A stretch of 54,530 nt of DNA, taken from the NCBI GenBank assembly GCA_964578175.1, contig CAZOBH010000006.1, positions 1 to 54,530 of the forward strand. Direction: 5' to 3'. The notes below the pieces were generated by a model. That model was not told the origin of the DNA. It saw nothing but the letters and a program-made list of their open reading frames with translations, and did no database searches. The stretch is from an uncultured Clostridium sp. GTDB lineage: Bacteria > Bacillota_I > Bacilli_A > RF39 > UBA660. The position numbers and the translations under genes are program-made. Positions 2-46,091 of the stretch are shown here, in pieces (positions within the stretch are counted from its first letter, which is position 1; each line of letters starts with the position of its first letter).

Positions 2-619
2 AGTAATATCACTAACTTCTACTTGGTAACCACCATTATTAGCTATTTCCTTAAATTTACTAGGAATATCTTTTACATAAGTCTTACTATTACCAATAAA
101 AACAACTTTCTTCTTTTCATTTTTATCTAGTGATATATTAGATTTCTTTGCTTTTTTTGATTCTTCTTCATTTTTCTTTCTAGCTTCTTCTCTTTTTTTA
201 GCTACTTCTTCTCGTTCTTTCTTTGCTTTTTCAAGTTCAGCTTTTTCTTTAGCGTCTATAGTGGCTTGTTCTTCTTCTTCTTTATTTTTTAATTCCTTTA
301 TATAACTAGGTGTAGCTTTTTCCATACATGTTTTATATGTTGTTGCGAATCCTATTCCAGCTGATGATAACATATTAAAAAATAATGACACTATTAATGG
401 AACGAAATATACTATACTAATTGCGACGATTCTTCCAGCGATTGTCTTTATTTGTTTCTTTGATTCAGCATCAGGACTTGTAACAATAGTAAATAACGTA
501 TAAGCATTCATTATTATAAAAATACTTGGTACCACAAACAAAATTATTAAAATTACTGTTTTAATAAATAATATTGTTGATAAAAAATTTGAATCTCCAC
601 ATACCGTTGATAAAAACAT
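2..619 (-). CDS. Partial (3' end beyond window) membrane protein: two-TM pilin-like hairpin, K/E coiled coil, start of an SGNH-like domain
   Basis: Not in the ORF track; manual translation MFLSTVCGDSNFLSTILFIKTVILIILFVVPSIFII...RIVAISIVYFVPLIV...KEREEVAKKREEARKK...KKVVFIGNSKTY; GGTAGTGA SD-like sequence upstream on the minus strand; open to the window edge. Confidence 0.8.
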   Translation of the reverse strand, partial: MFLSTVCGDSNFLSTILFIKTVILIILFVVPSIFIIMNAYTLFTIVTSPDAESKKQIKTIAGRIVAISIVYFVPLIVSLFFNMLSSAGIGFATTYKTCMEKATPSYIKELKNKEEEEQATIDAKEKAELEKAKKEREEVAKKREEARKKNEEESKKAKKSNISLDKNEKKKVVFIGNSKTYVKDIPSKFKEIANNGGYQVEVSDIT

Positions 620-762
620 ATTATCACTACCTTTATTTAATTATATAATAAGAAAATATTAAAAAAAATATTATTACATTTTTAAGTGTAAAGTTAATAA
701 GATAATAAATAAATTATGTTATAATGATGTCTATAGAGTTTAAAATACACGAGGAGAGATAT

Positions 763-9913: not shown

Positions 9914-10009
9914 CTTGTACTTTTATTAGTACAAGTATTTTGACATGCCTGTACTAATCCTAGAAATTGTTTATTAGTACAGGTTAATAGATAATTTTTA
10001 GGAGGATAT
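9913..10009 (+). promoter_or_regulatory. Alternative hairpins, including an SD-sequestering stem (translational attenuator)
   Basis: 9913-9920:9929-9936; 9925-9933:9950-9958; 9948-9958:9973-9983; 9958-9977:9984-10003, the last covering part of the AGGAGG RBS. Confidence 0.65.
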
Positions 10010-11062
10010 ATGAAAGAAGAAATAATAAAAACATTAAAAGATTTATTAAGTTTTAAAACTTATAAAGATAATAAATTAGAATTTGATAAATTATTTAATT
10101 ATATAAAAAAAGAATATAAAAGTTTAAATATAGAAGAATATGTATTTGATAATAAAAAGTGTTTAGTACTTAGTAATAGTAAGTCTCATGATTTAGATAT
10201 AATATTTTGTTGTCATATAGATGTTGTATATGCAGATGATTATAGTATTAAAGAAGATAATGATAATCTATATGGAAGAGGAACTATCGATATGAAAGGT
10301 AGTACTGCAGTGTGTCTTAATATTATGAAAAATCTAAATACTGATAAAAAAATAGCATTATTTATTACAAGTGATGAAGAAGTAGATGGTTATACTGCTT
10401 CATGTCTTGTTAAAGAATATAATAGTAAGTTTGCAATAGTACCAGATGGAGGATCTAATTTTGAACTTATTAGTGAAGAAAAAGGATTAATGCAATTAAA
10501 ACTTAGTGTTAATACTAAATCATGTCATGCAGCTCAATTATTTAATGGAGAAAACGCTATTGTTAAACTATTTGATGTTTATAAAAAAATAATAGAGAAG
10601 TATCCATTACCTAAATCAAGTAATGATTATATTACTAGTATTAATTTATCTAAATTAAATGGAGGAACATCTAATAATCAAGTTCCTGGTTATGCTGAAA
10701 TGATCTTAGATATTAGAAATATTAAATCAGATAGTTTAGATAAAATATTTAAATTTATTAAAAATATAGATAAAGATGTAAAAGTAGAAACAATTATAAT
10801 TGGACCTACTTTTAGTACTAATTTAAATAATAAGTATGTAAAACAATATATTAGCTCTTGTGAAAAAATACTAAATAAAGATATTAAAATAATTGGATGT
10901 GAATCAACTAGTGATGCTATTTTCTTTAGTGAGAAGAATATACCTACTGTTATTATGAATCCTTGTGGATATTATGCCCATTCTCCACAAGAATATGTCA
11001 ATAAAAATAGTTTATTAGATTTATATAATATTTATTATGATTTTATTAAGGAGTTTAAATAA
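10010..11062 (+). CDS. M20 family metallohydrolase (ArgE/DapE-like)
   Basis: CHIDVV, GRGTIDMKG, DEE, HAA, SDA and HSPQE metal-ligand motifs. Confidence 0.88.
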   Translation: MKEEIIKTLKDLLSFKTYKDNKLEFDKLFNYIKKEYKSLNIEEYVFDNKKCLVLSNSKSHDLDIIFCCHIDVVYADDYSIKEDNDNLYGRGTIDMKGSTAVCLNIMKNLNTDKKIALFITSDEEVDGYTASCLVKEYNSKFAIVPDGGSNFELISEEKGLMQLKLSVNTKSCHAAQLFNGENAIVKLFDVYKKIIEKYPLPKSSNDYITSINLSKLNGGTSNNQVPGYAEMILDIRNIKSDSLDKIFKFIKNIDKDVKVETIIIGPTFSTNLNNKYVKQYISSCEKILNKDIKIIGCESTSDAIFFSEKNIPTVIMNPCGYYAHSPQEYVNKNSLLDLYNIYYDFIKEFK

Positions 11063-11814
11063 TGGAAGCTCTTAATAAAAAAACAGTAAATATCGATTTA
11101 AACTATTTATATTATAGAGCAATATTTTTAGACGATTCAGAGTTTAGAGTATGGAAAAAATTAGAAAATGGTTGTTCTATTGCAACTATGGGTTATTCTG
11201 AAGAAAATGTTTTAGTACTTATGAAATTATTAGAGTCTTTTGCCGAACAATACGGAGAAGAAATAACTTATGAATCAGCAAGTGATGAATTAAAATTATA
11301 TCAAGATAATGGTAAATTATTTATTTATCTTGATGAAAATAATAATCCAGTATCTATGAATGGAGTTACTTATAATGAAGATAATATTAGCGTAGGTTTT
11401 GGAAGTTCTGATGATAGAGATATTTCATCTTTATATTTTTATGGATTATCAACAGTTCATGAATATAGGGGGAAAGGTGCTTGTAGAACATTGATTGATT
11501 TCGCTATTCAATATGCTTATTACAATAATTTTGATTTAGTATATGCAAGAACTGATTTAATTAATTCTAATTCCGAATGGATTATGCAAAACGCTGGTTT
11601 AGAAGTATGTAAAAATGATAATGATATTATAGCTGAATGGGTACCTGTAACTGAGTCTAAAGGTGATTATAGACTTCATATGTGGTTACCTTTAAAAGAA
11701 GATATTTATATATATCCAAAGGAAGATGCAATTATGGCTGATGGTATTACAAGAGAAATAAAAGTTAAAAAAGATAAAGTAAAAAAGAAGGATTTTGTTT
11801 ATGAAGAAATTTAA
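11062..11814 (+). CDS. GNAT family N-acetyltransferase
   Basis: Motif A STVHEYRGKGACRTLI and N..S..IMQNAG; translationally coupled to the upstream gene. Confidence 0.75.
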   Translation: MEALNKKTVNIDLNYLYYRAIFLDDSEFRVWKKLENGCSIATMGYSEENVLVLMKLLESFAEQYGEEITYESASDELKLYQDNGKLFIYLDENNNPVSMNGVTYNEDNISVGFGSSDDRDISSLYFYGLSTVHEYRGKGACRTLIDFAIQYAYYNNFDLVYARTDLINSNSEWIMQNAGLEVCKNDNDIIAEWVPVTESKGDYRLHMWLPLKEDIYIYPKEDAIMADGITREIKVKKDKVKKKDFVYEEI

Positions 11815-12529
11815 AATTAATGATGAAGTATTTGATATTTTAGGAGATATATCAGTAGGTGTATTAGTTCTTAAAAATGTTAATGAGAATAAAAAGTTAA
11901 GTGATATAGAATCAAAAGAAATAAAAGAGTTACTTGAAAATAGTAATAATTATTCTAAAAAGTATTTAACAAGTGATGTTATATCTGAAAATGATGTTGT
12001 TAAAGTATGGAGAGAAATATATCAAAAGTTTCCGACTAAAAAAGGAGTTCGTTGTTCTTTAGAAAATTTACTTAAAAGAGTATTACATGATAATCCAGTT
12101 GGAAGTATTTTACCATCTATAGATATTACTAATTCTATTTCCTTAAAATATGCTTTACCAATAGGTGCAGAAGATTTAGATAAAATAGATGGTGATTTGT
12201 TTTTAGGAGTTATGGAAGGATCTGAACATTTTCTACCTATTGGAAGTGAAGAAGAAGATAAACCATTAAAAGGTGAAATAGCATATTGTGATAATTATGG
12301 AGTTGTATGTAGATGTCTTAATTGGAGAGATGGAGTAAGAACTGAAATAACAGATGATACAACGTTAGAATTTATCGCAATGGAATGTGTTGAAAAAGAT
12401 AAACTTGATGATCTAAATAATGCTCTTCTAGAACTAGCTAATTTGATGAGTAAATACTTAGATTGTGAAGTAGTATTGAAAACAATAGTTGATAAAAATA
12501 ATAAAGAAGTTGTTTTAATTGAAGGATAG
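11801..12529 (+). CDS. Stand-alone B3/4 (PheRS-beta editing-like) domain protein
   Basis: WREIY..F.TKKGVRCSLENLLKR, DITNSISLKYALPIGAEDLDKIDG and CRCLNWR are typical of the family; ATG 11801 follows AAGAAGGA. Confidence 0.85.
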   Translation: MKKFKINDEVFDILGDISVGVLVLKNVNENKKLSDIESKEIKELLENSNNYSKKYLTSDVISENDVVKVWREIYQKFPTKKGVRCSLENLLKRVLHDNPVGSILPSIDITNSISLKYALPIGAEDLDKIDGDLFLGVMEGSEHFLPIGSEEEDKPLKGEIAYCDNYGVVCRCLNWRDGVRTEITDDTTLEFIAMECVEKDKLDDLNNALLELANLMSKYLDCEVVLKTIVDKNNKEVVLIEG

Positions 12530-27357: not shown

Positions 27358-29027
27358 TAGAATAGTAGGATTATATGATAGGGTGATTATATGAATAAAA
27401 AAGGATTTACAATGATAGAGTTGCTAGCGGTAATAGTAATACTAGGACTTTTACTAGGAGTTGGAATACCAGCAGTAAATAAAGTGCTAGCTAATTTTAG
27501 AATTGATTATTATAAGAAGTTAGAAGGAACCCTAGCAACAGCAGGTCAAGAATTTATATCAGATAAAAGATATCAAAAACCAACAGAACTAATGTATTCA
27601 AGAGTAATAACAAAGGAAGAATTAGTAGGTGGAAAATATATAGATGAGATATTAGATTATAAAGAGAATGAATGTGCAGGAAGTTATGTAGTGGTAGCAA
27701 AAATAGGAGATAAACACTACGAGTATCAAGCATGCTTAAAATGTGAAACAGACGAATATGAAACAGATACAAGTAATAAAGAATATGATCTATGTAATAT
27801 AGCATGGCAAGATAATGAAAACATTGATTATGGAGCAGTAAACGATAAAGAAAAATTATGGGTATATTATGGAACACCAGCAAATGAGATAAAGAACGAG
27901 CTAGGTCTATCTTACGGAATAACAAAGAAAGATAGTGAAGGAAAAGTAATAGCACAAGCAGAAGGAATGGAAAATAAAATTGTATATCCAAATAACATAA
28001 ATGAATTAGTAAGTGCAAATCTAGATAAAGAAGTAACATTAAGATATGAATTACCAACAGGAGAAAGTGTAAATAGAAAAGCAGAGATGTATAGATTTAG
28101 TGTACCAACAGTAAGTCTAAAATATGGAGCAAATAATGTAGCAACAGGAAAACATACAGGAGATACATACACTCAAGGAGAATGGACGAGTAGTTTAAAT
28201 GTAACAATCGGATATAATGAGAAAGATAAAGAAAAATATAGAGACTTTATAGAACAAAGCACGAAATTCACGGTAGAGTGGTATAACCAAACAACAAAGA
28301 AGTGGGAGATAGGAGCAACATGTAATACGAAAGGACTAACTAGTTGTACATGGAATATAAATAGAGACTTTAATGCAGTAACAAAATTTAGAATAAAAGA
28401 TTATAAAGGACATCCATCAATGGAAACTGGAAACTATAAGTTACAAGTAGATGTACAAAAACCAAGTGTAACATTAACAAGACAAACATATAATACATAT
28501 AATTGGACAGCAACAGAGAAAGGTGAATCAGGATTAAGAGGATATAGGTATTCAACAAGTAATACAGTACCAACAAGTTACACAACAAGTGGAACAATAA
28601 ATTCAGGAAGTAAAACAATAAGTAGTGAAGCAACAAACTATGTATGGGTAGTAGATAGAGCAGGAAATGCGAATAGTGCATCAATTGCATCATATACAGT
28701 AAAAAGAAGTCAAGGAGCAGGAACGAGTTTAACAACAAAATATGAAACATCAAGTGGAACAACATTTACAAGTAATTTAGTAGTATTAAATGGAACAAAG
28801 ATATATGTATCAGGAACATCAAGTGCAGGATACAGTGGAATAGTAGTAAAGAAAAATGGAACAGCAATAACAAATAATGCACAAACAACAATAAGTGCGA
28901 ACTCGACAATCAGTAGTGAAGCAACAATATGTGCAGCTGGAAGTTATAGTGGAGCAGGAGCAGCATCATGTACAAAATGTCCAGTTGGAACTTATTCGTC
29001 AGGTACAGGATCAACTTCATGTACAAA
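27358..29027 (+). repeat. 1670-bp direct repeat, copy A
   Basis: Matches 29997-31666 at offset 2639; protein and alternate-frame translations are identical. Confidence 0.92.
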
Positions 29028-29886
29028 CTGTGCAACAGGTTATGAAAGTGGTGAAGGCGCAACTACTTGTACAAAGAAAACATTTACTATTACATATAAT
29101 GGAAATGGAAGTACTGGAGGATCAACTGCTAGTACAAGTTGTAAATATAATGAAACATGTACTTTAAGAAATAATGGATTTAAAAGAACAGGGTATTTCT
29201 TTACAGGATGGTATACTAGTGCATCTGGAGGAACTAAATATGGTTCAACTACTAAACTTACAAGTAATATAACAGTTTATGCACAATGGACAAAAATAAC
29301 TATGAGTATCTCTAATCCAACTAATGGAAATTGGACAAATCGAGATATAGTATTATCATTAAGTACAAGTTTACCAGCAGAAAAAGTAAAATCTTGGTAT
29401 TATAGTTATGCTAATATTACTCCAAGTTTAAGTAATGTTGGAAGTGACGATACTAGAAATTGGGTTAAACATGATAATTCATCTGGTAAAAAATCATTTA
29501 ATACAACACCATATAGTGCAGAGAGAAATCAACTATCATACATAATGGTGTGTAGTACTGATAATGAATGTATTAAAGAATCAACACGTATTAGAATTGA
29601 CAAAACTGCACCTTATTATTCATCAAGCGAATCAAGAGACTGTGATCATATATATTATGGATATTATCATTGTTATATGCCTATAATAAGAGATAATTTA
29701 TCTGGTGTAAACAGTCGTTGTATTTCAACTTCTGGTGGAGAAAATCATTGTGATAATTATGGTGGAATTATGGCTGTGTCTGATGAGTTAAATACAACAT
29801 CATATTCTATTTGGTGGGATTACAGCAGTGCATGTGACATAGCTGGAAATTGTAGAAATCTTGGAAGACATTATCATAGTTGGTAA
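27391..29886 (+). CDS. Type IV prepilin-like surface protein A: three Cys-rich repeats, InlB B-repeat-like domain, unique C-terminus
   Basis: G|FTMIELLAVIVILGLL methylation motif; TITYNGNG...TGYFFTGWYT...VYAQW (about 29080-29295). Confidence 0.85.
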   Translation: MNKKGFTMIELLAVIVILGLLLGVGIPAVNKVLANFRIDYYKKLEGTLATAGQEFISDKRYQKPTELMYSRVITKEELVGGKYIDEILDYKENECAGSYVVVAKIGDKHYEYQACLKCETDEYETDTSNKEYDLCNIAWQDNENIDYGAVNDKEKLWVYYGTPANEIKNELGLSYGITKKDSEGKVIAQAEGMENKIVYPNNINELVSANLDKEVTLRYELPTGESVNRKAEMYRFSVPTVSLKYGANNVATGKHTGDTYTQGEWTSSLNVTIGYNEKDKEKYRDFIEQSTKFTVEWYNQTTKKWEIGATCNTKGLTSCTWNINRDFNAVTKFRIKDYKGHPSMETGNYKLQVDVQKPSVTLTRQTYNTYNWTATEKGESGLRGYRYSTSNTVPTSYTTSGTINSGSKTISSEATNYVWVVDRAGNANSASIASYTVKRSQGAGTSLTTKYETSSGTTFTSNLVVLNGTKIYVSGTSSAGYSGIVVKKNGTAITNNAQTTISANSTISSEATICAAGSYSGAGAASCTKCPVGTYSSGTGSTSCTNCATGYESGEGATTCTKKTFTITYNGNGSTGGSTASTSCKYNETCTLRNNGFKRTGYFFTGWYTSASGGTKYGSTTKLTSNITVYAQWTKITMSISNPTNGNWTNRDIVLSLSTSLPAEKVKSWYYSYANITPSLSNVGSDDTRNWVKHDNSSGKKSFNTTPYSAERNQLSYIMVCSTDNECIKESTRIRIDKTAPYYSSSESRDCDHIYYGYYHCYMPIIRDNLSGVNSRCISTSGGENHCDNYGGIMAVSDELNTTSYSIWWDYSSACDIAGNCRNLGRHYHSW

Positions 29887-29996: not shown

Positions 29997-31666
29997 TAGA
30001 ATAGTAGGATTATATGATAGGGTGATTATATGAATAAAAAAGGATTTACAATGATAGAGTTGCTAGCGGTAATAGTAATACTAGGACTTTTACTAGGAGT
30101 TGGAATACCAGCAGTAAATAAAGTGCTAGCTAATTTTAGAATTGATTATTATAAGAAGTTAGAAGGAACCCTAGCAACAGCAGGTCAAGAATTTATATCA
30201 GATAAAAGATATCAAAAACCAACAGAACTAATGTATTCAAGAGTAATAACAAAGGAAGAATTAGTAGGTGGAAAATATATAGATGAGATATTAGATTATA
30301 AAGAGAATGAATGTGCAGGAAGTTATGTAGTGGTAGCAAAAATAGGAGATAAACACTACGAGTATCAAGCATGCTTAAAATGTGAAACAGACGAATATGA
30401 AACAGATACAAGTAATAAAGAATATGATCTATGTAATATAGCATGGCAAGATAATGAAAACATTGATTATGGAGCAGTAAACGATAAAGAAAAATTATGG
30501 GTATATTATGGAACACCAGCAAATGAGATAAAGAACGAGCTAGGTCTATCTTACGGAATAACAAAGAAAGATAGTGAAGGAAAAGTAATAGCACAAGCAG
30601 AAGGAATGGAAAATAAAATTGTATATCCAAATAACATAAATGAATTAGTAAGTGCAAATCTAGATAAAGAAGTAACATTAAGATATGAATTACCAACAGG
30701 AGAAAGTGTAAATAGAAAAGCAGAGATGTATAGATTTAGTGTACCAACAGTAAGTCTAAAATATGGAGCAAATAATGTAGCAACAGGAAAACATACAGGA
30801 GATACATACACTCAAGGAGAATGGACGAGTAGTTTAAATGTAACAATCGGATATAATGAGAAAGATAAAGAAAAATATAGAGACTTTATAGAACAAAGCA
30901 CGAAATTCACGGTAGAGTGGTATAACCAAACAACAAAGAAGTGGGAGATAGGAGCAACATGTAATACGAAAGGACTAACTAGTTGTACATGGAATATAAA
31001 TAGAGACTTTAATGCAGTAACAAAATTTAGAATAAAAGATTATAAAGGACATCCATCAATGGAAACTGGAAACTATAAGTTACAAGTAGATGTACAAAAA
31101 CCAAGTGTAACATTAACAAGACAAACATATAATACATATAATTGGACAGCAACAGAGAAAGGTGAATCAGGATTAAGAGGATATAGGTATTCAACAAGTA
31201 ATACAGTACCAACAAGTTACACAACAAGTGGAACAATAAATTCAGGAAGTAAAACAATAAGTAGTGAAGCAACAAACTATGTATGGGTAGTAGATAGAGC
31301 AGGAAATGCGAATAGTGCATCAATTGCATCATATACAGTAAAAAGAAGTCAAGGAGCAGGAACGAGTTTAACAACAAAATATGAAACATCAAGTGGAACA
31401 ACATTTACAAGTAATTTAGTAGTATTAAATGGAACAAAGATATATGTATCAGGAACATCAAGTGCAGGATACAGTGGAATAGTAGTAAAGAAAAATGGAA
31501 CAGCAATAACAAATAATGCACAAACAACAATAAGTGCGAACTCGACAATCAGTAGTGAAGCAACAATATGTGCAGCTGGAAGTTATAGTGGAGCAGGAGC
31601 AGCATCATGTACAAAATGTCCAGTTGGAACTTATTCGTCAGGTACAGGATCAACTTCATGTACAAA
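29997..31666 (+). repeat. 1670-bp direct repeat, copy B
   Basis: See copy A; the copies diverge immediately after TCAACTTCATGTACAAA. Confidence 0.92.
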
Positions 31667-33314
31667 ATGTGCCAAAGGAACTTATGCAGCAAGTACTGGA
31701 TCATCAAGTTGTGCAAAAGCAAGCTGTGGGCATTACGTAGATACAGAAGGAGCGAGTTCACAAAAAACATGTGCCGCAGGAACATATAGTTCAGAAGGAG
31801 CAGCAACATGTACAAGTGCAACAGCAGGACATTATGTAGCAAGTGCTGGAGCATGTAGTCAAACAGCATGTGCGAAAGGAACATATCAATCAGGAACAGG
31901 AAAGACAAGCTGTACACAAGCAACATGTGGACATTATGTAAGTTCAACAGGAGCAACATCACAAGCAACATGTGCAGCTGGAACGTATAGTGCAGCAGGA
32001 GCAGCAACATGTACAAGTGCAACAGCTGGACATTATGTTGCAAGTGCTGGAGCATGTAGTCAAACAGCATGTGCGAAAGGAACATATCAATCAGGAACAG
32101 GAAAGACAAGCTGTACACAAGCAACATGTGGACATTATGTAAGTTCAACAGGAGCAACATCACAAGCAACATGTGCAGCTGGAACGTATAGTGCAGCAGG
32201 GGCAGCATCATGTACAAGTGCAACAGCTGGTCACTATGTAGCAAGTGCTGGAGCATGTAGCCAAACAGCATGTGCTAAAGGAACATATCAATCGGGAACA
32301 GGGAAAACAAGTTGTTCAAGTTGTGCAGCCGGAACTTATGCATCTAGTACTGGTTCAAGTAGTTGTACAAATGCAAGTTGTGGACATTATGTAGCAAGTG
32401 CTGGAGCAAGTTCACAAACAGCATGTGCAGCCGGGACATATCAAGATGGAACAGGGAAAACAAGTTGTAAAAGTGCAACAGCTGGTCACTACGTAGCAAG
32501 TGCTGGAGCATGCAGTCAAGCTGCTTGTGCTAAAGGAACATATCAATCAGGAACAGGAAAAACAAGTTGTTCAAATTGTGCAGCCGGAACTTATGCATCT
32601 AGTACTGGATCAAGTAGTTGTACAAATGCAAGTTGTGGACATTATGTAGCAAGTGCTGGAGCAAGTTCACAAACAGCATGTGCAGCCGGAACATATCAAT
32701 CAGGAACAGGAAAAACAAGTTGTACAAATGCTAGTAAAGGATATTATGTAGCAAGTGCCGGGTCATGTAGTCAAACAAAATGTCCAGCGAATAAATATCA
32801 AAATGAAACAGGAAAGTCTAGTTGTAAAAACTGTCCTGCTGGTACTGAAAGTAGTGCTGGAGCAAGTTCATGTACATCTACATGTACTCTTACATTTACA
32901 AATGCTACTTATGTTGAAAGTGGAAATAACGGTGGTAGATGTTGGAACACTTGTAAAGGTACTGAGTGTCAAAGTTCTCATCTTCACTGGGAACATAATT
33001 GTAGTACTCCTTCAACTGGTGGAAGTAGAAAGTCTATCTCACATAGTGGATATAGTTGGAACTGGGGAGGACAAGGATCTAGAATGTGTTACTATAACCC
33101 AGATTCTAGTCCATACTTCAGCGATTTATGGGAAAGATGTGATACATCTGAAGCATATTATAATAATTCTGCTAAAACTGCTGGTGGAACATTCTGTTTT
33201 AACTCAGCACAAAAATGGGATTATTATAGGTCATCAGAATATGGAATTGCTACCGTATGTTATGGTACTCAATGTGGCCAAAGAATAATTTGTACAGGAA
33301 GTAATTGTAATTAA
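30030..33314 (+). CDS. Type IV prepilin-like surface protein B with a long Cys-rich repeat stalk and unique C-terminus
   Basis: Same N-terminal ~546 aa as protein A; 26 units of 16-17 aa; Cys/aromatic-rich tip of about 145 aa. Confidence 0.85.
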   Translation: MNKKGFTMIELLAVIVILGLLLGVGIPAVNKVLANFRIDYYKKLEGTLATAGQEFISDKRYQKPTELMYSRVITKEELVGGKYIDEILDYKENECAGSYVVVAKIGDKHYEYQACLKCETDEYETDTSNKEYDLCNIAWQDNENIDYGAVNDKEKLWVYYGTPANEIKNELGLSYGITKKDSEGKVIAQAEGMENKIVYPNNINELVSANLDKEVTLRYELPTGESVNRKAEMYRFSVPTVSLKYGANNVATGKHTGDTYTQGEWTSSLNVTIGYNEKDKEKYRDFIEQSTKFTVEWYNQTTKKWEIGATCNTKGLTSCTWNINRDFNAVTKFRIKDYKGHPSMETGNYKLQVDVQKPSVTLTRQTYNTYNWTATEKGESGLRGYRYSTSNTVPTSYTTSGTINSGSKTISSEATNYVWVVDRAGNANSASIASYTVKRSQGAGTSLTTKYETSSGTTFTSNLVVLNGTKIYVSGTSSAGYSGIVVKKNGTAITNNAQTTISANSTISSEATICAAGSYSGAGAASCTKCPVGTYSSGTGSTSCTKCAKGTYAASTGSSSCAKASCGHYVDTEGASSQKTCAAGTYSSEGAATCTSATAGHYVASAGACSQTACAKGTYQSGTGKTSCTQATCGHYVSSTGATSQATCAAGTYSAAGAATCTSATAGHYVASAGACSQTACAKGTYQSGTGKTSCTQATCGHYVSSTGATSQATCAAGTYSAAGAASCTSATAGHYVASAGACSQTACAKGTYQSGTGKTSCSSCAAGTYASSTGSSSCTNASCGHYVASAGASSQTACAAGTYQDGTGKTSCKSATAGHYVASAGACSQAACAKGTYQSGTGKTSCSNCAAGTYASSTGSSSCTNASCGHYVASAGASSQTACAAGTYQSGTGKTSCTNASKGYYVASAGSCSQTKCPANKYQNETGKSSCKNCPAGTESSAGASSCTSTCTLTFTNATYVESGNNGGRCWNTCKGTECQSSHLHWEHNCSTPSTGGSRKSISHSGYSWNWGGQGSRMCYYNPDSSPYFSDLWERCDTSEAYYNNSAKTAGGTFCFNSAQKWDYYRSSEYGIATVCYGTQCGQRIICTGSNCN
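31569..32879 (+). repeat. Intragenic tandem Cys-rich repeats (CxxGTY / xxxGHY units; 201-bp higher-order period)
   Basis: Near-identical blocks start at 31801, 32002 and 32203. Confidence 0.9.
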
Positions 33315-38102: not shown

Positions 38103-38360
38103 ATGGCAGATATGGCATTAAAACCTTATAGTATTGATATAGAAAGTATAAGAATTGGTAAAACAGATATTAAAACTTATGTTGATCATGAAACTAAAAA
38201 AGAAAATAAATATGTAATAGATTTAAGTGAAGCTTTTAAAGAACCTTTAAAATTAAAAGAAAAAAAATATGTAATGGATTTATCTGGAGTATTTCCTAGT
38301 TTTGATAATATTAACAGTGATTATAATCCATATATAGATGAATTAAATGATAATTATTAA
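38103..38360 (+). CDS. Small hypothetical protein with an internal repeat
   Basis: AGGTGG RBS; KYVIDLSEAF / KYVMDLSGVF. Confidence 0.6.
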   Translation: MADMALKPYSIDIESIRIGKTDIKTYVDHETKKENKYVIDLSEAFKEPLKLKEKKYVMDLSGVFPSFDNINSDYNPYIDELNDNY

Positions 38361-38387: not shown

Positions 38388-40073
38388 ATGAAGAAAGTAT
38401 TTAGATTTATTTTAGTTGTTTTATTATGCCCAACAATAATTTTTGCTGAGTCTAGAATAGCTTGTGGTGATGCTGGTAATATTCCTTTAGCTTTGCCTGA
38501 GTTTGTAAGAACTATTTTAACTCTTGTTAAATTTTTAGTGCCACTTGGTTTAATTTTATATGGTGGTGTAGACTTATTAAAAGCGGTTTATAGTAATGAT
38601 AAAAGAGGTTTAGATATAGCAACAAAACACTTTATAACAAGAGCAGTTGCTGGTGTTTCTATTTTCTTTTTTATATACATAGTTCAAATTTTTGTTAAAG
38701 GAACAGAGGATAATACAGTACTTGAATGTTTAAATTGTTTTACTACTGATGAAAATGCATGTGTTGTTTATAATGTAGAAGTTGATGATGGAAAGAAAGA
38801 AAAAGAAGAAGCTGATAAGAAACGTGAGGCTTTAAATAAAAAACGTGAAGAAGAAAGAAAGAAACAAGAAGAAGAAGCTAGAAGAGCTAAAGAAATAGCT
38901 AGTAGAGATAAAGATGATGATTCAATTCTTAATGGAACAAGAACTCCAGGAGAAACAACTGGTTCATGTAATCCAGGAAGTAAAAATATCTTTTTAGGTG
39001 ACTCTAGAACTGTTCAAATGTGTATTTATAAAACAGGAGCTAGTTGGGTAAACAATCCTTGTGAATATACAACTCATGGAACATATCAAAAAGGAAATGA
39101 CTACTATGTTGCTGCTGGAGGATTAGGATATGATTGGATGGTATCAAGTGGAGCAGCTGGAGTTAATGCTATTTTAAATGCAAATCCAGGAACTACATTT
39201 AATATCATAAGTTTATTAGGTATAAATGGACTTGGTGCAGAAAGATATGTTGCCAAATACAAAGAATATGCAAGTGGTCCATGGAAAGGTCATAATTTAG
39301 TATTTGTTAGTGGTAATCCAATTGATGAAAGTAGATATTCTGGATTTAAGAATAGTGATATTGAAAGTTTTAATAGAACATTAAAAAATGGAGTAAGTGG
39401 AATAGGTATGTATTGTGATACTTATAGTAAGTTACCCAAGAACTTTGGTGGAGATGGACTTCATTATAATCAACAAATGTATGAAAAAATATATACTGAG
39501 TCATTGAAATGTGCAAATACAATAGATCCTAATTGTAATAATGGGGTATCAGGAGAAACTCATTCAGCAGGACTTAATCATAGTCAAAAATTACAAAAAG
39601 TATTCCCTAATGGTATTCCAGCATCAGATGCTGAAGTACGTAAATATTTAGTTGATTTAGAAGTTCCAATTACTAAAAAAGATGGAACTAAGACAACCAC
39701 TACTGTTCAAGTACATAAAGTAATTGCTGGTGATGTTAAAGCGGCTTTAGTAGCAGCACAAAATTCAGGATTTAAAGTTTATGAAATAGGTGGATATAGA
39801 ACTTATGGGTCTGATTCAGCAGGATCAATTACAAGTATCGGATTAGTTCAAAGTCAACACTGTTATGGATTAGCAGTTGATATAAATGTTGATGAAAACT
39901 GTCATAGACCGAGCAATGGGCCATGTGTTACAGGAAGTACTTATTTAACTGGACCTTATGCAATAACACCAGATACAGCTCTTTATAAATCATTCATTGG
40001 TAATGGATGGGGATGGGGAGGAGAATGGAGTAGTTCAAAAGACTATATGCATTTCTCTTACTTTGGTTATTAG
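38388..40073 (+). CDS. Pilin-like two-TM hairpin, coiled coil, SGNH esterase and M15 peptidoglycan peptidase
   Basis: Signal peptide; ACGD..IP hairpin; IFLGDSRT/LGIN/DGLHY (SGNH); GGYR, SQHCYGLAVD and WGWGGEW..DYMHF (M15). Confidence 0.82.
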   Translation: MKKVFRFILVVLLCPTIIFAESRIACGDAGNIPLALPEFVRTILTLVKFLVPLGLILYGGVDLLKAVYSNDKRGLDIATKHFITRAVAGVSIFFFIYIVQIFVKGTEDNTVLECLNCFTTDENACVVYNVEVDDGKKEKEEADKKREALNKKREEERKKQEEEARRAKEIASRDKDDDSILNGTRTPGETTGSCNPGSKNIFLGDSRTVQMCIYKTGASWVNNPCEYTTHGTYQKGNDYYVAAGGLGYDWMVSSGAAGVNAILNANPGTTFNIISLLGINGLGAERYVAKYKEYASGPWKGHNLVFVSGNPIDESRYSGFKNSDIESFNRTLKNGVSGIGMYCDTYSKLPKNFGGDGLHYNQQMYEKIYTESLKCANTIDPNCNNGVSGETHSAGLNHSQKLQKVFPNGIPASDAEVRKYLVDLEVPITKKDGTKTTTTVQVHKVIAGDVKAALVAAQNSGFKVYEIGGYRTYGSDSAGSITSIGLVQSQHCYGLAVDINVDENCHRPSNGPCVTGSTYLTGPYAITPDTALYKSFIGNGWGWGGEWSSSKDYMHFSYFGY

Positions 40074-40082
40074 GCGTTAATT

Positions 40083-41516
40083 ATGAAAAAGAAATTACTA
40101 TTACTAAACATAATTAACATTTTATATTCACCATTAGTATTAGCTGATACTAGAGCAGCATGTGGAAATACTGATAATATTCCAGCTGCTCTTCCTGAAT
40201 TTGTTAGACTTATATTTCTATTAATAAAATATTTGATACCAGTTGCTTTGATACTATATGGATCAATTGACTTTTTAAAAGTATTATTTTCTGGTAGTAA
40301 TGTAGGACTAGATAGAGTAGTAAAGAAAATGATTACAAGAGTAATAGCAGGTGTATCAGTATTTTTCATAGTGTTTTTGATTCAATTTTTCGTAAAAGAA
40401 GCAACAGAAGATGATGGAATTGTAGAGTGTATAAGTTGTTTTACTACAAATGAGGATTCATGTAGATTATATGTAGCAGAAGAAGATGATGGATCAAGTG
40501 AAAAAACTGAAGCTGATAAAAAAAGAGAGTCTTTAAATAAAAAGCGAGAAGAAGAAAGAAAGAAACAGGAAGAAGAAGCTAAAAAAGCAAAAGAGATTGC
40601 TAAAAAAGATAAAGATGATGATTCAATACTTAATGGAAGAATGGTACAAACTTGTCTAGATTATTCATATGCTGGAAATGGAAAAGTAAAATCTAGATTT
40701 TCAAGTCATACTCTAGAAATTGTTGAGAAACATTTAAATGATTTTGATTATAGTAATTTTGTATCTAGAACAGATGATTTTAAAGTATATATGAATAGTC
40801 TTGGTGGAGTATTTTCTAGTTACTATGGGAAAAAAATGCATGTTACATCAGCCAAAGAATTACAACTTGTCAGTGAATATGTTTTTGGAATGATGTATAT
40901 GTATGGATTTGATTATTATAATGGACCAACTCGTAAATATTGCAAATGGGGTGGAAGTTGTAAAGATATGGATAAAATAAGAATGGGAGAACTACCACAA
41001 GCTGCATCAAGTGATGCATTTTATCCAGGAACTATAATTCATTCTGAAGATGGATTATCTGGACCATTAAGTGATTTTGATAAATTAATTAGTAATCAAG
41101 GTGAGATTAACATGACTACTAACTGTAACTGGACTGTTGATATGATCTATTATAAAGCTGGATTATTTGGTGGAAAAGGTCAACCTGGTGGTTCAGCAGA
41201 TGCTGCAGCTATGGGTAGAAAATATAAAATAATAAGTGATCCTAATGATCTACAAGTAGGAGATATTGTTCATTTTTTTGAAAATGGAATTGATAAGACT
41301 AATCCTGATACTTGGAATGGATGGTATCATGTTGCCTTTATTGGAGAAGTTGATAGTTATAATAAAAAAGTAGTAGGTTATGATGGAGGTAGTTATTTTA
41401 CTAATAATCGTAACTTTAAATGGGAAGCTAAAATAGAAGGTAGTGAAACAAAATTACATGGAACTAAAAACTGGGCTGCAGTAAGAATTGCAGATTTAGA
41501 TCAAAGTTGTATTTAA
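40083..41516 (+). CDS. Paralogous pilin-like hairpin and coiled coil with a CHAP/NlpC-P60-like C-terminal domain
   Basis: N-terminal ~185 aa clearly homologous to 38388; TNCNWTV...LQVGDIVHF...HVAFI gives a Cys-His pattern. Confidence 0.72.
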   Translation: MKKKLLLLNIINILYSPLVLADTRAACGNTDNIPAALPEFVRLIFLLIKYLIPVALILYGSIDFLKVLFSGSNVGLDRVVKKMITRVIAGVSVFFIVFLIQFFVKEATEDDGIVECISCFTTNEDSCRLYVAEEDDGSSEKTEADKKRESLNKKREEERKKQEEEAKKAKEIAKKDKDDDSILNGRMVQTCLDYSYAGNGKVKSRFSSHTLEIVEKHLNDFDYSNFVSRTDDFKVYMNSLGGVFSSYYGKKMHVTSAKELQLVSEYVFGMMYMYGFDYYNGPTRKYCKWGGSCKDMDKIRMGELPQAASSDAFYPGTIIHSEDGLSGPLSDFDKLISNQGEINMTTNCNWTVDMIYYKAGLFGGKGQPGGSADAAAMGRKYKIISDPNDLQVGDIVHFFENGIDKTNPDTWNGWYHVAFIGEVDSYNKKVVGYDGGSYFTNNRNFKWEAKIEGSETKLHGTKNWAAVRIADLDQSCI

Positions 41517-45320: not shown

Positions 45321-46091
45321 TTAGTTTTTAGTTGCTGGTATAGTTTTAGTGCATTTGTTATTAGATAAGGTATATCCAGAATCACATGTATAGATTTTTT
45401 TATGTAATGGTAGACATTTATAACTATCTGGTCCACCCAAACTAATCATTTTTATTATTCCATATCCACTAGGACAAGATTCGTCTGTTGTTTCATATCC
45501 TTCACTTAAATTAACGCAATATGTATCGCTTGGTATTCCTGAATTTGAGTAATCATAAGTATTAGAAGGACATACATGTTTTGCATCAATTGTAATGGTA
45601 CATGTAGTTCCATTTAATTTATATCCATTTGGACATGAATAAGTTACTTTTGGTTTAGGAGTTTCAGTTTGATTATTATTATTTGATCCTGTATTTGTTG
45701 TTGTTCCTGAACTAGAACTTGTATTTGTATTAGTTTTTGTATTTTTATTTGTATTTGTCTTTTTATTAGTTGTATTTTTACTTGATGTAGACTTTTTTGT
45801 TTTTGTACTTGTACTTGTAGTATTTTTTGTACTAGTTTTAGGATTAGTAACTTTATTATCAGTTTTATTAGTATTGTTAGTATTAGTTTGTTCTTTGGTT
45901 TGTTCTTTAGTTTGCTCTTTATTTTCTTCTATAGTTGATTCGATTACAGGTGTTTCTTCTTTTGTTTCAATTTTACTAGTTTCACTTGTCTTATTATTTT
46001 TATATGTATTAGTTTTTAAGAGAAAGAAACAAACACATATTAAAGTGATTATAAAAATGATTAAAAATACTTTTTTTCTATCCATAAACAT
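45321..46091 (-). CDS. Membrane-anchored protein with a T/N/K-rich stalk and a Cys-rich CPxGY C-terminal domain
   Basis: N-terminal TM helix; low-complexity linker; CPNGY, CPSGY and CDSGY; eight Cys in the C-domain. Confidence 0.8.
   Translation of the reverse strand: MFMDRKKVFLIIFIITLICVCFFLLKTNTYKNNKTSETSKIETKEETPVIESTIEENKEQTKEQTKEQTNTNNTNKTDNKVTNPKTSTKNTTSTSTKTKKSTSSKNTTNKKTNTNKNTKTNTNTSSSSGTTTNTGSNNNNQTETPKPKVTYSCPNGYKLNGTTCTITIDAKHVCPSNTYDYSNSGIPSDTYCVNLSEGYETTDESCPSGYGIIKMISLGGPDSYKCLPLHKKIYTCDSGYTLSNNKCTKTIPATKN

Follow-up and report, generated by a model that had tools for sequence, protein, structure and literature searches.

Adjacent candidate cell-wall hydrolases of an uncultured bacterium share a hairpin module with apparent kinship to type IV secretion pilins

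PcsB, CwlO and RipC, which work with FtsEX on the wall of their own producer, have a CHAP or NlpC/P60 domain set off from a membrane-proximal element by a helical spacer; these proteins are not integral to the membrane and bind FtsX through their long coiled coils. The wall hydrolases known from Gram-positive type IV secretion systems (T4SSs) have an N-terminal membrane anchor followed by extracellular domains of mixed classes (CHAP, LytM/M23, glycosidase) (PMC12857230). Gram-positive T4SSs are described as lacking VirB2-type pilins, and Patescibacteria as the sole monoderms that may build conjugative pili (PMC12857230, PMC12102498). In our literature searches the Pfam family T4SS_pilin (PF18895) was used for Patescibacteria only, and no fusion of a pilin to a hydrolase was described. 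Here we analyze two adjacent genes, A and B, on a contig of 54,530 nucleotides from an uncultured Clostridium sp. (the window, by which we mean this whole stretch; 26% G+C overall and 21-35% per 2-kb segment). Each encodes a signal peptide, a two-helix hairpin that is related by homology to VirB2-like T4SS_pilin proteins, a charged stalk and a predicted hydrolase domain. We could not find such a combination of pilin module and wall hydrolase described before. The genes and their signal peptides are as follows.

38388..40073, + strand: gene A, an open reading frame (ORF) of 561 residues with signal peptide, pilin-like hairpin, charged stalk, predicted SGNH esterase and M15 peptidase
40083..41516, + strand: gene B, an ORF of 477 residues with signal peptide, pilin-like hairpin, charged stalk and a putative CHAP/papain-like domain
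38388..38450, + strand: signal peptide of A, residues 1-21, MKK and a hydrophobic core (hydrophobic segment 1-22), predicted cleavage between IFA and ES
40083..40145, + strand: signal peptide of B, residues 1-21 (hydrophobic segment 5-23), predicted cleavage between VLA and DT

The two genes lie on the same strand with a gap of 9 nt. They had been singled out, in a reading made by a model from the sequence only, as neighbors with a common N-terminus and fully divergent remainders, and this description holds. The ORFs sit at exactly those coordinates, A residues 17-183 and B residues 18-185 are 61% identical (BLASTP, E 2e-52), and C-terminal to the shared part BLASTP finds no significant similarity between the two proteins. 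The constant N-terminus is real and lies well past chance expectation. Every motif quoted in that reading for the shared part was located in both proteins: ACG..NIP.ALPEFVR at residues 25-41 of A and 26-42 of B, E-C-x2-C-F-x6-C at 113-125 and 115-127, and KDDDSILNG at 175-183 and 177-185. Nucleotide identity between the genes is 58-70% over the hairpin and 83% (peak 93%) over the linker, the stalk being the segment of highest nucleotide conservation, and it drops to 31% just past the codons for DDSILNG. Positions 38698-38940 recur at 40399-40641 as a direct repeat of 243 nt. The hairpin modules occupy the following positions.

38451..38780, + strand: pilin-like module of A, residues 22-131, with Cys26-Gly, NIP..LP.F, a first transmembrane helix at about 38-64, a basic loop and a second transmembrane helix at about 81-106
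within 38451..38780, + strand: Cys motif of the A module, C114-x2-C117-F-x6-C125
40146..40481, + strand: pilin-like module of B, residues 22-133, with Cys27, Cys116, Cys119 and Cys127

Hydropathy plots of A and B have the signal peptide followed by two strongly hydrophobic segments, at about residues 38-65 and 81-106. From 50 aligned family sequences, AlphaFold2 (AF2) modeled the B module with a pLDDT of 86, helices reaching about 90. The model consists of a beta-hairpin (residues 23-34) that bears the conserved Cys-Gly, an antiparallel pair of long helices (36-70 and 76-106), and a short helix (112-121) and a strand (128-131) that bear C-x2-C-F-x6-C; the loop joining the long helices is basic. 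From this layout and the basic loop we infer that both ends of the hairpin are extracellular, where the four cysteines would hold them together through disulfides or a metal site. A lipoprotein reading of the conserved cysteine was rejected, as there is no lipobox, the residue lies 5-8 positions past the predicted signal-peptidase I site, and the same cysteine occurs behind large N-terminal domains in proteins that carry the module at their C-terminus.

A word-indexed homologue search with the A module found nothing. A word-indexed search with a profile returned 1085 proteins at E<=1e-5, and a full HMMER scan with a profile of the two modules returned 3241 at E<=1e-3, 602 of them at E<=1e-10. 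The hairpin family is large and mostly unannotated. Among its 150 best representatives the module is C-terminal in 60, N-terminal with a tail in 41, free-standing in 31 and in the middle of the protein in 18; free-standing members have about 120-170 residues, and C-terminal-module members place the module behind another ectodomain. Across all forms one cysteine is invariant, and three further cysteines together with Gly, Pro and Asp positions are conserved at 90% or more. The free-standing, N-terminal and C-terminal forms keep identical Cys, Gly, Pro and Asp residues, and A and B retain this signature in full. The tails of the N-terminal-module members are mostly wall or ester hydrolases (NlpC/P60, M15_4, M23, Amidase_3, C39_2, CHAP, GDSL, phage lysozyme, NAGPA and alpha/beta-hydrolases).

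The kinship of the A/B hairpin to VirB2-like T4SS_pilin proteins is, as judged from homology, real, because relatives and B orthologues match PF18895 and because free-standing members stand beside VirB6-VirB3-VirB4. PF18895 was matched by 58 of the 150 best representatives (best E 2.9e-9), and these matching relatives score E 1e-15 to 1e-38 against the A/B module profile. The B orthologues match PF18895 over residues 15-80 or so at 25-35 bits (cut-off 26.6), three of them (P0154, P0161 and P0176) at 30.2-35.4 bits. One family member matches the NCBIfam model for the 'pilin-like conjugal transfer protein' of a Mycoplasma integrative and conjugative element (ICE), Mbov_0395. Like the PF18895 pilins of Patescibacteria T4SS loci and the Mbov_0395 proteins of Mycoplasma ICEs, A and B have a signal peptide, a two-helix hairpin and a short basic loop, are related to them in sequence through orthologues and relatives, occur in tandem arrays of divergent copies, and belong to a family whose free-standing members adjoin VirB4/VirB6 (PMC12102498). 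They differ from these pilins in their enzyme payloads of 290-380 residues on a charged stalk, in the four-Cys cap, in a housekeeping neighborhood in wall-bearing Bacilli, and in a score under the Pfam threshold. Membership of A and B in PF18895 holds by transitive homology, topology and family neighborhoods, and fails by direct HMM score and by the location of their own genes. Pfam and NCBIfam matches of A, B and their N-termini to 7tm_1, PspA and UPF0242 were set aside as composition-driven noise, and the module profile retrieved only helices of G-protein-coupled receptors from PDB sequences.

Besides those of L013-L016, the T4SS neighborhoods come from a metagenome scan that gave 18 loci, among them L019, which at 98% identity belongs to the species of the window; the T4SS proteins of locus L016 served as probes for T4SS genes. 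About 11 loci extend far enough downstream, and in 8 of them VirB6, in the order VirB6(-VirB3-TraC-VirB4(-VirD4)), directly follows the module genes. The free-standing or C-terminal-module members that adjoin T4SS genes are those of L013-L016, L020, L022-L025, L029, L034 and L035. In L013, four module genes stand beside TrbL_4 (VirB6-like), VirB3-like, TraC-like and VirB4 genes and VanY and M23 hydrolases; in L016 the order is VirB6, VirB3-like, TraC-like, VirB4, a hydrolase with glucosaminidase and CHAP domains, a lipoprotein and VirD4. A Pfam census of 76 cluster ORFs counted AAA_10/P-loop_TraG six times, T4SS_pilin five times, TrbL_4 four times and T4SS-DNA_transf three times, together with the hydrolase families SpoIID, M23, M15_4, VanY, glucosaminidase and CHAP; no relaxase was among the 25 most frequent Pfam families. 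The gene 3' of VirB4 always encodes a large wall hydrolase. In L029 this protein, located downstream of VirB4, has 905 residues (SpoIID and M15_4), and its C-terminus is 40% identical to A residues 400-561 (E 2e-35); the B payload has no such match to cluster-encoded hydrolases. Given the cluster neighborhoods and the M15 match, the hairpin family is at its core linked to T4SSs, and for each half of protein A the nearest relatives detected lie in T4SS clusters. VirB4- and VirB6-like partners, for which the sequence-only reading had advised a search, are found beside free-standing members in related low-GC Bacilli loci, and none is found in the 54.5-kb window. A tblastn search of 72,556 plasmids with one free-standing member (P0064, which is not the module of A or B) gave no match.

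The T4SS-bearing loci have further features of their own. Right after VirD4 in L016, two genes (9956-10582 and 10688-11839) encode near-identical C-terminal modules behind unrelated N-terminal ectodomains, a mirror image of the A/B layout. The contigs of L013, L016, L020, L024, L025, L029, L034 and L035 are low in GC (24-34%) and of Bacilli type, with arrays of two to four PF18895-type genes; these pilin-like arrays lie before or after the T4SS clusters (VirB6/TrbL_4, VirB3-like, TraC-like, VirB4, hydrolase, VirD4), some of which adjoin Tad-like genes (T2SSE, RcpC) and sit between chromosomal genes. Among monoderms, reviews report arrays of VirB2-like genes for Patescibacteria alone. A 583-aa DUF87 ATPase (L007 2695-4443), encoded beside a family member with a C-terminal module in the stretch from ylxM to the end of the contig, was considered as a VirB4 and rejected, its nearest solved relatives being HerA proteins, including those of Sir2-HerA-type anti-phage defence.

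Compared with the VirB1-type hydrolases (PrgK of pCF10, TraG of pIP501, Orf14 of Tn916 and CwlT of ICEBs1), A and B likewise combine a membrane anchor with predicted extracellular wall-cutting domains, and the M15 domain of A has a homologue in a hydrolase whose gene follows VirB4. Their anchor, in contrast, is not a single transmembrane helix but a hairpin of pilin type preceded by a cleavable signal peptide, they lie outside any T4SS cluster, and SGNH and M15 payloads are absent from the model-system list of such hydrolases in PMC12857230. The payload domains of A and B are located as follows.

38943..39542, + strand: predicted SGNH-type esterase domain of A, residues 186-385, with Ser206 in GDSR, Gly278/Asn280, and Asp356/His359 in DGLHY
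39579..40070, + strand: C-terminal M15 (LAS) metallopeptidase region of A, residues 398-561, with predicted zinc ligands His491-x6-Asp498 ... His555
40650..41513, + strand: payload of B, residues 190-477, a putative divergent CHAP/papain-like fold with invariant Cys348 (TTNCNW) and His416 (WYHVAF)

Protein A had been read as an SGNH esterase joined to an M15 peptidase, and both assignments were upheld, by different kinds of evidence. The M15 domain matches Pfam Peptidase_M15_4 over residues 488-558 (E 2.3e-15, 57 bits against a cut-off of 25), contains SQHCYGLAVD at residues 489-498, and weakly matches 2vo9, the L-Ala-D-Glu peptidase Ply500. For residues 186-385 Pfam gives no match, its GDSL models matching some relatives only; the SGNH blocks GDSR (204-207), G-x-N (G278/N280) and DGLHY (D356/H359) are invariant in 11 homologues, and the profile of the domain matches the SGNH structure 2hsj (E 1.8e-4). 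The label CHAP/NlpC-like given to B fared less evenly. Its payload of about 290 residues has no Pfam match at E<=10, CHAP and NLPC_P60 included, and no match among PDB sequences even with a profile of 114 sequences. The AF2 model of the payload has a pLDDT above 90, and with it Foldseek retrieved two phage CHAP proteins from BFVD (E 2.4e-3 and 3.5e-3, probability 0.99-1.0); the top fold match in PDB is the CHAP domain of the phi812 hub (E 0.11), and this fold support is weak as a whole. Cys348 and His416 do not vary among 114 homologues. We hold with moderate confidence that the B payload is a very divergent hydrolase of the CHAP/papain-like type. A total of 152 homologues of the payload were found; nearly all are 390-480 residues long and for that reason are taken to have the same architecture. 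Identity is 41-64% across the 120 of them that were listed, almost all of which bear such a module.

Between hairpin and payload lies the stalk.

38781..38936, + strand: Glu/Lys-rich helical stalk of A, residues 132-183, ending in KDDDSILNG, with 18 acidic and 17 basic residues of 52
40482..40637, + strand: Glu/Lys-rich helical stalk of B, residues 134-185, ending in KDDDSILNG, with a single AF2 helix at 141-177

In both proteins the stalk holds 18 acidic and 16-17 basic residues over about 50 positions. The near-identical segment that had been called a coiled coil is present; AF2 predicts it as one long single helix (B residues 141-177) instead. Such a spacer recalls PcsB, CwlO and RipC in standing between a membrane element and a wall-hydrolase domain, whereas the spacer of A and B is a single short helix, highly charged and joined to an integral hairpin, and no link to FtsEX was seen. 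The Glu/Lys stalk is present in 13 of the 41 N-terminal-module relatives, the nearest ones. At its end, a junction motif, D-x-D-x-(I/V)-L-N-G, coincides with the exact end of homology in A, B, the paralogues of the syntenic locus L008 described below, and P0003, P0004 and P0007; more distant N-terminal-module relatives have no such motif, yet they have a stalk or other spacers. The linker is possibly a recombination site. In three independent public runs, contig ends fuse the A linker (38815-38874) to the B linker (40569-40581) with omission of about 1.7 kb, the shorter side of the joins having 20-21 letters only; these joins are most likely an assembly-graph effect of words common to both linkers and not proof of recombinant genes.

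Variation of the payload on the constant N-terminus, where the sequence-only reading had proposed swappable payloads, is borne out by close relatives. The syntenic locus L008 (also recovered as L002, L009 and L010), from the sheep-rumen metagenome-assembled genome 'Bacilli bacterium RGIG6883', has four back-to-back paralogues (462, 483, 554 and 383 aa) ahead of the same purine nucleoside phosphorylase (PNP) family gene that follows B. Their payloads stand in another order than in A/B: two are B-like, one is C39_2 (possibly with an NlpC/P60-like domain) and one is SGNH alone. A scan of a genome collection with an alignment of 10 sequences found a single locus, the representatives not including the window's own genome. 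More distant B orthologues are single genes, located between tyrS and rpsD/ezrA or adjoining thioredoxin genes; overall, B orthologues occupy three unrelated housekeeping neighborhoods. The window itself contains a third copy at its edge.

2..622, - strand: third paralogue, cut by the contig end, with hairpin module, Glu/Lys stalk and the start of an SGNH-like domain (VVFIGNSKT)

The module HMM matches this paralogue with E 1.8e-10, and the protein has no obvious signal peptide; its last 30 residues would, to judge from the motif VVFIGNSKT (probably SGNH block I), belong to an SGNH-like domain.

The immediate surroundings of the pair are of a housekeeping kind. Upstream of A are a P-type ATPase gene, glyA and an ORF of 85 residues; B is followed after 10 nt by the PNP-family gene (PNP_UDP_1) and then by rpmG, efp and an SDR gene. 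No small immunity-type ORF is found beside A or B, nor between the four L008 paralogues, which are likewise back to back. The window, a single contig, has no VirB4, VirB6 or VirD4 gene. Its wall-polymer genes are TagF-like, TagD-like, DltA/B/D and UppP, alongside a VanX-like dipeptidase, Lon and other housekeeping functions. A scan for promoters and terminators gave no signal exceeding the shuffled background. The locus was found in at least 20 public runs, of which the organism-labelled ones are bovine gut metagenomes. Two runs that contain it are labelled metatranscriptomic; contig depth in them is flat as in DNA, and for this reason they are uninformative on transcription.

Given the observed architecture, homologies and gene neighborhoods, the reading that we favor, with middling confidence, is that A and B are membrane-tethered hydrolases that work on the wall of their producer, with an anchor recruited from T4SS pilins and payloads shuffled at the stalk. 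After Sec export and cleavage of the signal peptide, the two-helix hairpin would be held in the membrane with both termini extracellular, its outer ends clamped by the four conserved cysteines through two disulfides or a metal site. The stiff Glu/Lys helix, some 50 residues and roughly 5-7 nm long, would position the enzymes in the inner wall zone. There the SGNH esterase of A may strip acyl groups, for example O-acetyl, from wall glycans and its M15 zinc peptidase would cut stem peptides, while B would act as a Cys-His CHAP-like amidase or endopeptidase. Rather than a generic anchor, the hairpin would be a recruit from the VirB2-like T4SS pilins of this lineage and may still dock to a T4SS, and new enzyme combinations would arise by recombination at the conserved stalk. 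Action on the own wall is favored because there are no immunity genes, because the organism has a normal Gram-positive envelope, because the B type is conserved in housekeeping contexts, and because the known Gram-positive T4SS hydrolases are anchored in the membrane likewise (PMC12857230).

Several observations weigh against this reading, some of them on the side of its pilin ancestry. The resemblance of the hairpin to VirB2/TrbC pilins, as claimed from the sequence, stands for PF18895 by way of the relatives and the B orthologues and has no direct match in A and B themselves: A, B and their isolated N-termini have no PF18895 match even at E<=10, the two proteins reach no Pfam or NCBIfam pilin model, and TrbC/VirB2 (PF04956) is matched neither by them nor by the 150 best relatives. 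The structural comparison does not single out VirB2-type pilins. Foldseek with the pLDDT-86 module model gave no PDB match at E<1, and the 50 best of 80 PDB matches include no solved VirB2 or TraA pilin, although short hairpins carry little fold information; the matches are helical hairpins of a generic kind, ATP-synthase c subunits among them. Other points concern function. Two genes against four in close relatives, their changed payloads and the third copy in the window look more like a diversifying, outward function than like housekeeping autolysins. The strict conservation of the hairpin signature in enzyme-bearing forms suggests a role past passive anchoring, and cleavage at the conserved junction DDSILNG could free the enzymes.

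A different view is that A and B are dedicated accessories of a T4SS or pilus, the hairpin co-assembling with free-standing pilin-like proteins at a VirB6/VirB4 platform, so that the wall would be opened at the very point of passage of the secretion channel or pilus; this amounts to a VirB1-type function encoded outside the cluster. We regard it as unlikely. Family members adjoin T4SS genes and A and B keep the full hairpin signature; yet no T4SS gene occurs in the 38 kb upstream or the 13 kb downstream of A/B, nor within 10 kb of the orthologous loci. The clusters carry the same hydrolase classes (M15_4, M23, CHAP and SpoIID), with the M15 end of A 40% identical to the L029 cluster hydrolase, but they already encode a hydrolase of their own, differently anchored. 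In favor of the accessory view are also L030, where a pilin-module and CHAP fusion, its CHAP domain related to the L016 cluster hydrolase, has a similar lipoprotein after it, and L034, where an N-terminal-module protein lies immediately upstream of VirB6. Against it, two to four paralogues per locus are seemingly more than a single apparatus requires.

The sequence-only reading had gone further and proposed display on a filament or delivery on contact, in keeping with an epibiotic or predatory life of a reduced-genome organism. The hairpins would polymerize, by themselves or together with free pilins, and so build a filament of VirB2 type displaying the enzymes, or would deliver them on contact, and so breach the walls of other bacteria in antagonistic, predatory or epibiotic use, with payloads swapped to fit the targets. 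The homology of the module to pilins speaks for this, although polymerization is unsupported for every family member and the Foldseek matches noted above contain no likeness to solved conjugative pilins. The long stalk could project a domain radially, but a domain of 30-45 kDa on each subunit is sterically hard to pack. Arrays of polymorphic payloads at one locus, three copies in 54.5 kb, and duplicated type IV-pilin-like giant proteins nearby would suit a weapon, as would the precedent of Patescibacteria, whose epibiotic growth depends on variable arrays of this Pfam family (PMC12102498, PMC12857230). In A and B, the constant N-terminus, sharp junction motif, unrelated C-terminal domains, and tandem paralogues whose number varies between relatives, all shared with polymorphic toxins (LXG, Rhs, CDI), come without adjacent immunity genes and with predicted Sec export and membrane retention; the payloads are of ordinary wall-hydrolase families, and the B type is orthologous over wide distances. 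The window has neither immunity nor T4SS genes, and display or delivery stays speculation, improbable in our estimate. The lifestyle claim is speculation as well; the organism makes its own wall polymers (TagF/TagD, DltA/B/D, UppP) and builds a normal Gram-positive envelope, and the B orthologues are conserved single genes in housekeeping contexts. That A and B are secreted bacteriolysins or autolysins, with the hairpin a transient export or retention pro-region and a protease cut at DDSILNG releasing the enzymes to wall or medium, is very improbable: the junction motif is conserved exactly at the end of homology, but more distant N-terminal-module relatives do not have it, a plain signal peptide would suffice for secretion, and the hairpin is conserved too well for a disposable pro-region.

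The present loci place a PF18895-type family, in arrays, beside VirB6/VirB4/VirD4 in wall-bearing low-GC rumen and gut Bacilli, and present it as a carrier of peptidoglycan hydrolases. Even on the tethered, own-wall reading, this defines a large unannotated membrane-anchor family, gives a working annotation for hundreds of 'hypothetical' proteins, and would be a case of recruitment of a secretion-system pilin to position wall enzymes. A bolder proposition, which we consider improbable, is that the VirB2-like proteins of a Gram-positive-type T4SS form a pilus-like polymer in wall-bearing, uncultured gut Bacilli, and that A, B and their paralogues co-polymerize in it as enzyme-bearing subunits. 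Such a filament, with exchangeable wall-cutting heads on its charged stalks, would bore through the wall of the producer and possibly of a partner. If true, it would be the first enzyme-carrying pilin and would offer a direct handle on the passage of T4SSs through the thick cell wall.

Some features elsewhere in the window are of note. From translations only, the + strand between 2316 and 17907 holds several TagF-like CDP-glycerol glycerophosphotransferases, one of them (1096 aa) fused to glycosyltransferase domains, along with TagD, an acyltransferase, DltA, DltB and a DltD-like protein, and 724-1425 encodes the VanX-like D-Ala-D-Ala dipeptidase. The 85-aa ORF in the gap between glyA and A (38103-38360, + strand) has no signal peptide and no Pfam match and contains a repeated Y-x-x-DLS-x-(V/A)F motif; after glyA in L008 (4853-5446) it has a counterpart of 197 residues with more repeats. 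The giant type IV-pilin-like proteins (27391-29886 and 30030-33314, + strand; 831 and 1094 aa) have an N-terminal KGFTMIELLAVIVILG prepilin motif. Their genes are perfectly identical over 33 nt upstream and the first 1637 nt (545 aa), past which they have different Cys/Thr/Ser/Gly-rich repeat regions of the CxxGTYxxxxG type. They form a second pair with constant N-terminus and variable C-terminus within the window, which may stem from duplication in the very recent past or from a collapse in the assembly. At 45321-46091 (- strand), a protein of 256 residues combines an N-terminal membrane helix with a long low-complexity region rich in Thr, Asn, Ser and Lys; C-P-x-G-Y / C-x-x-G-Y motifs recur in its C-terminal region.

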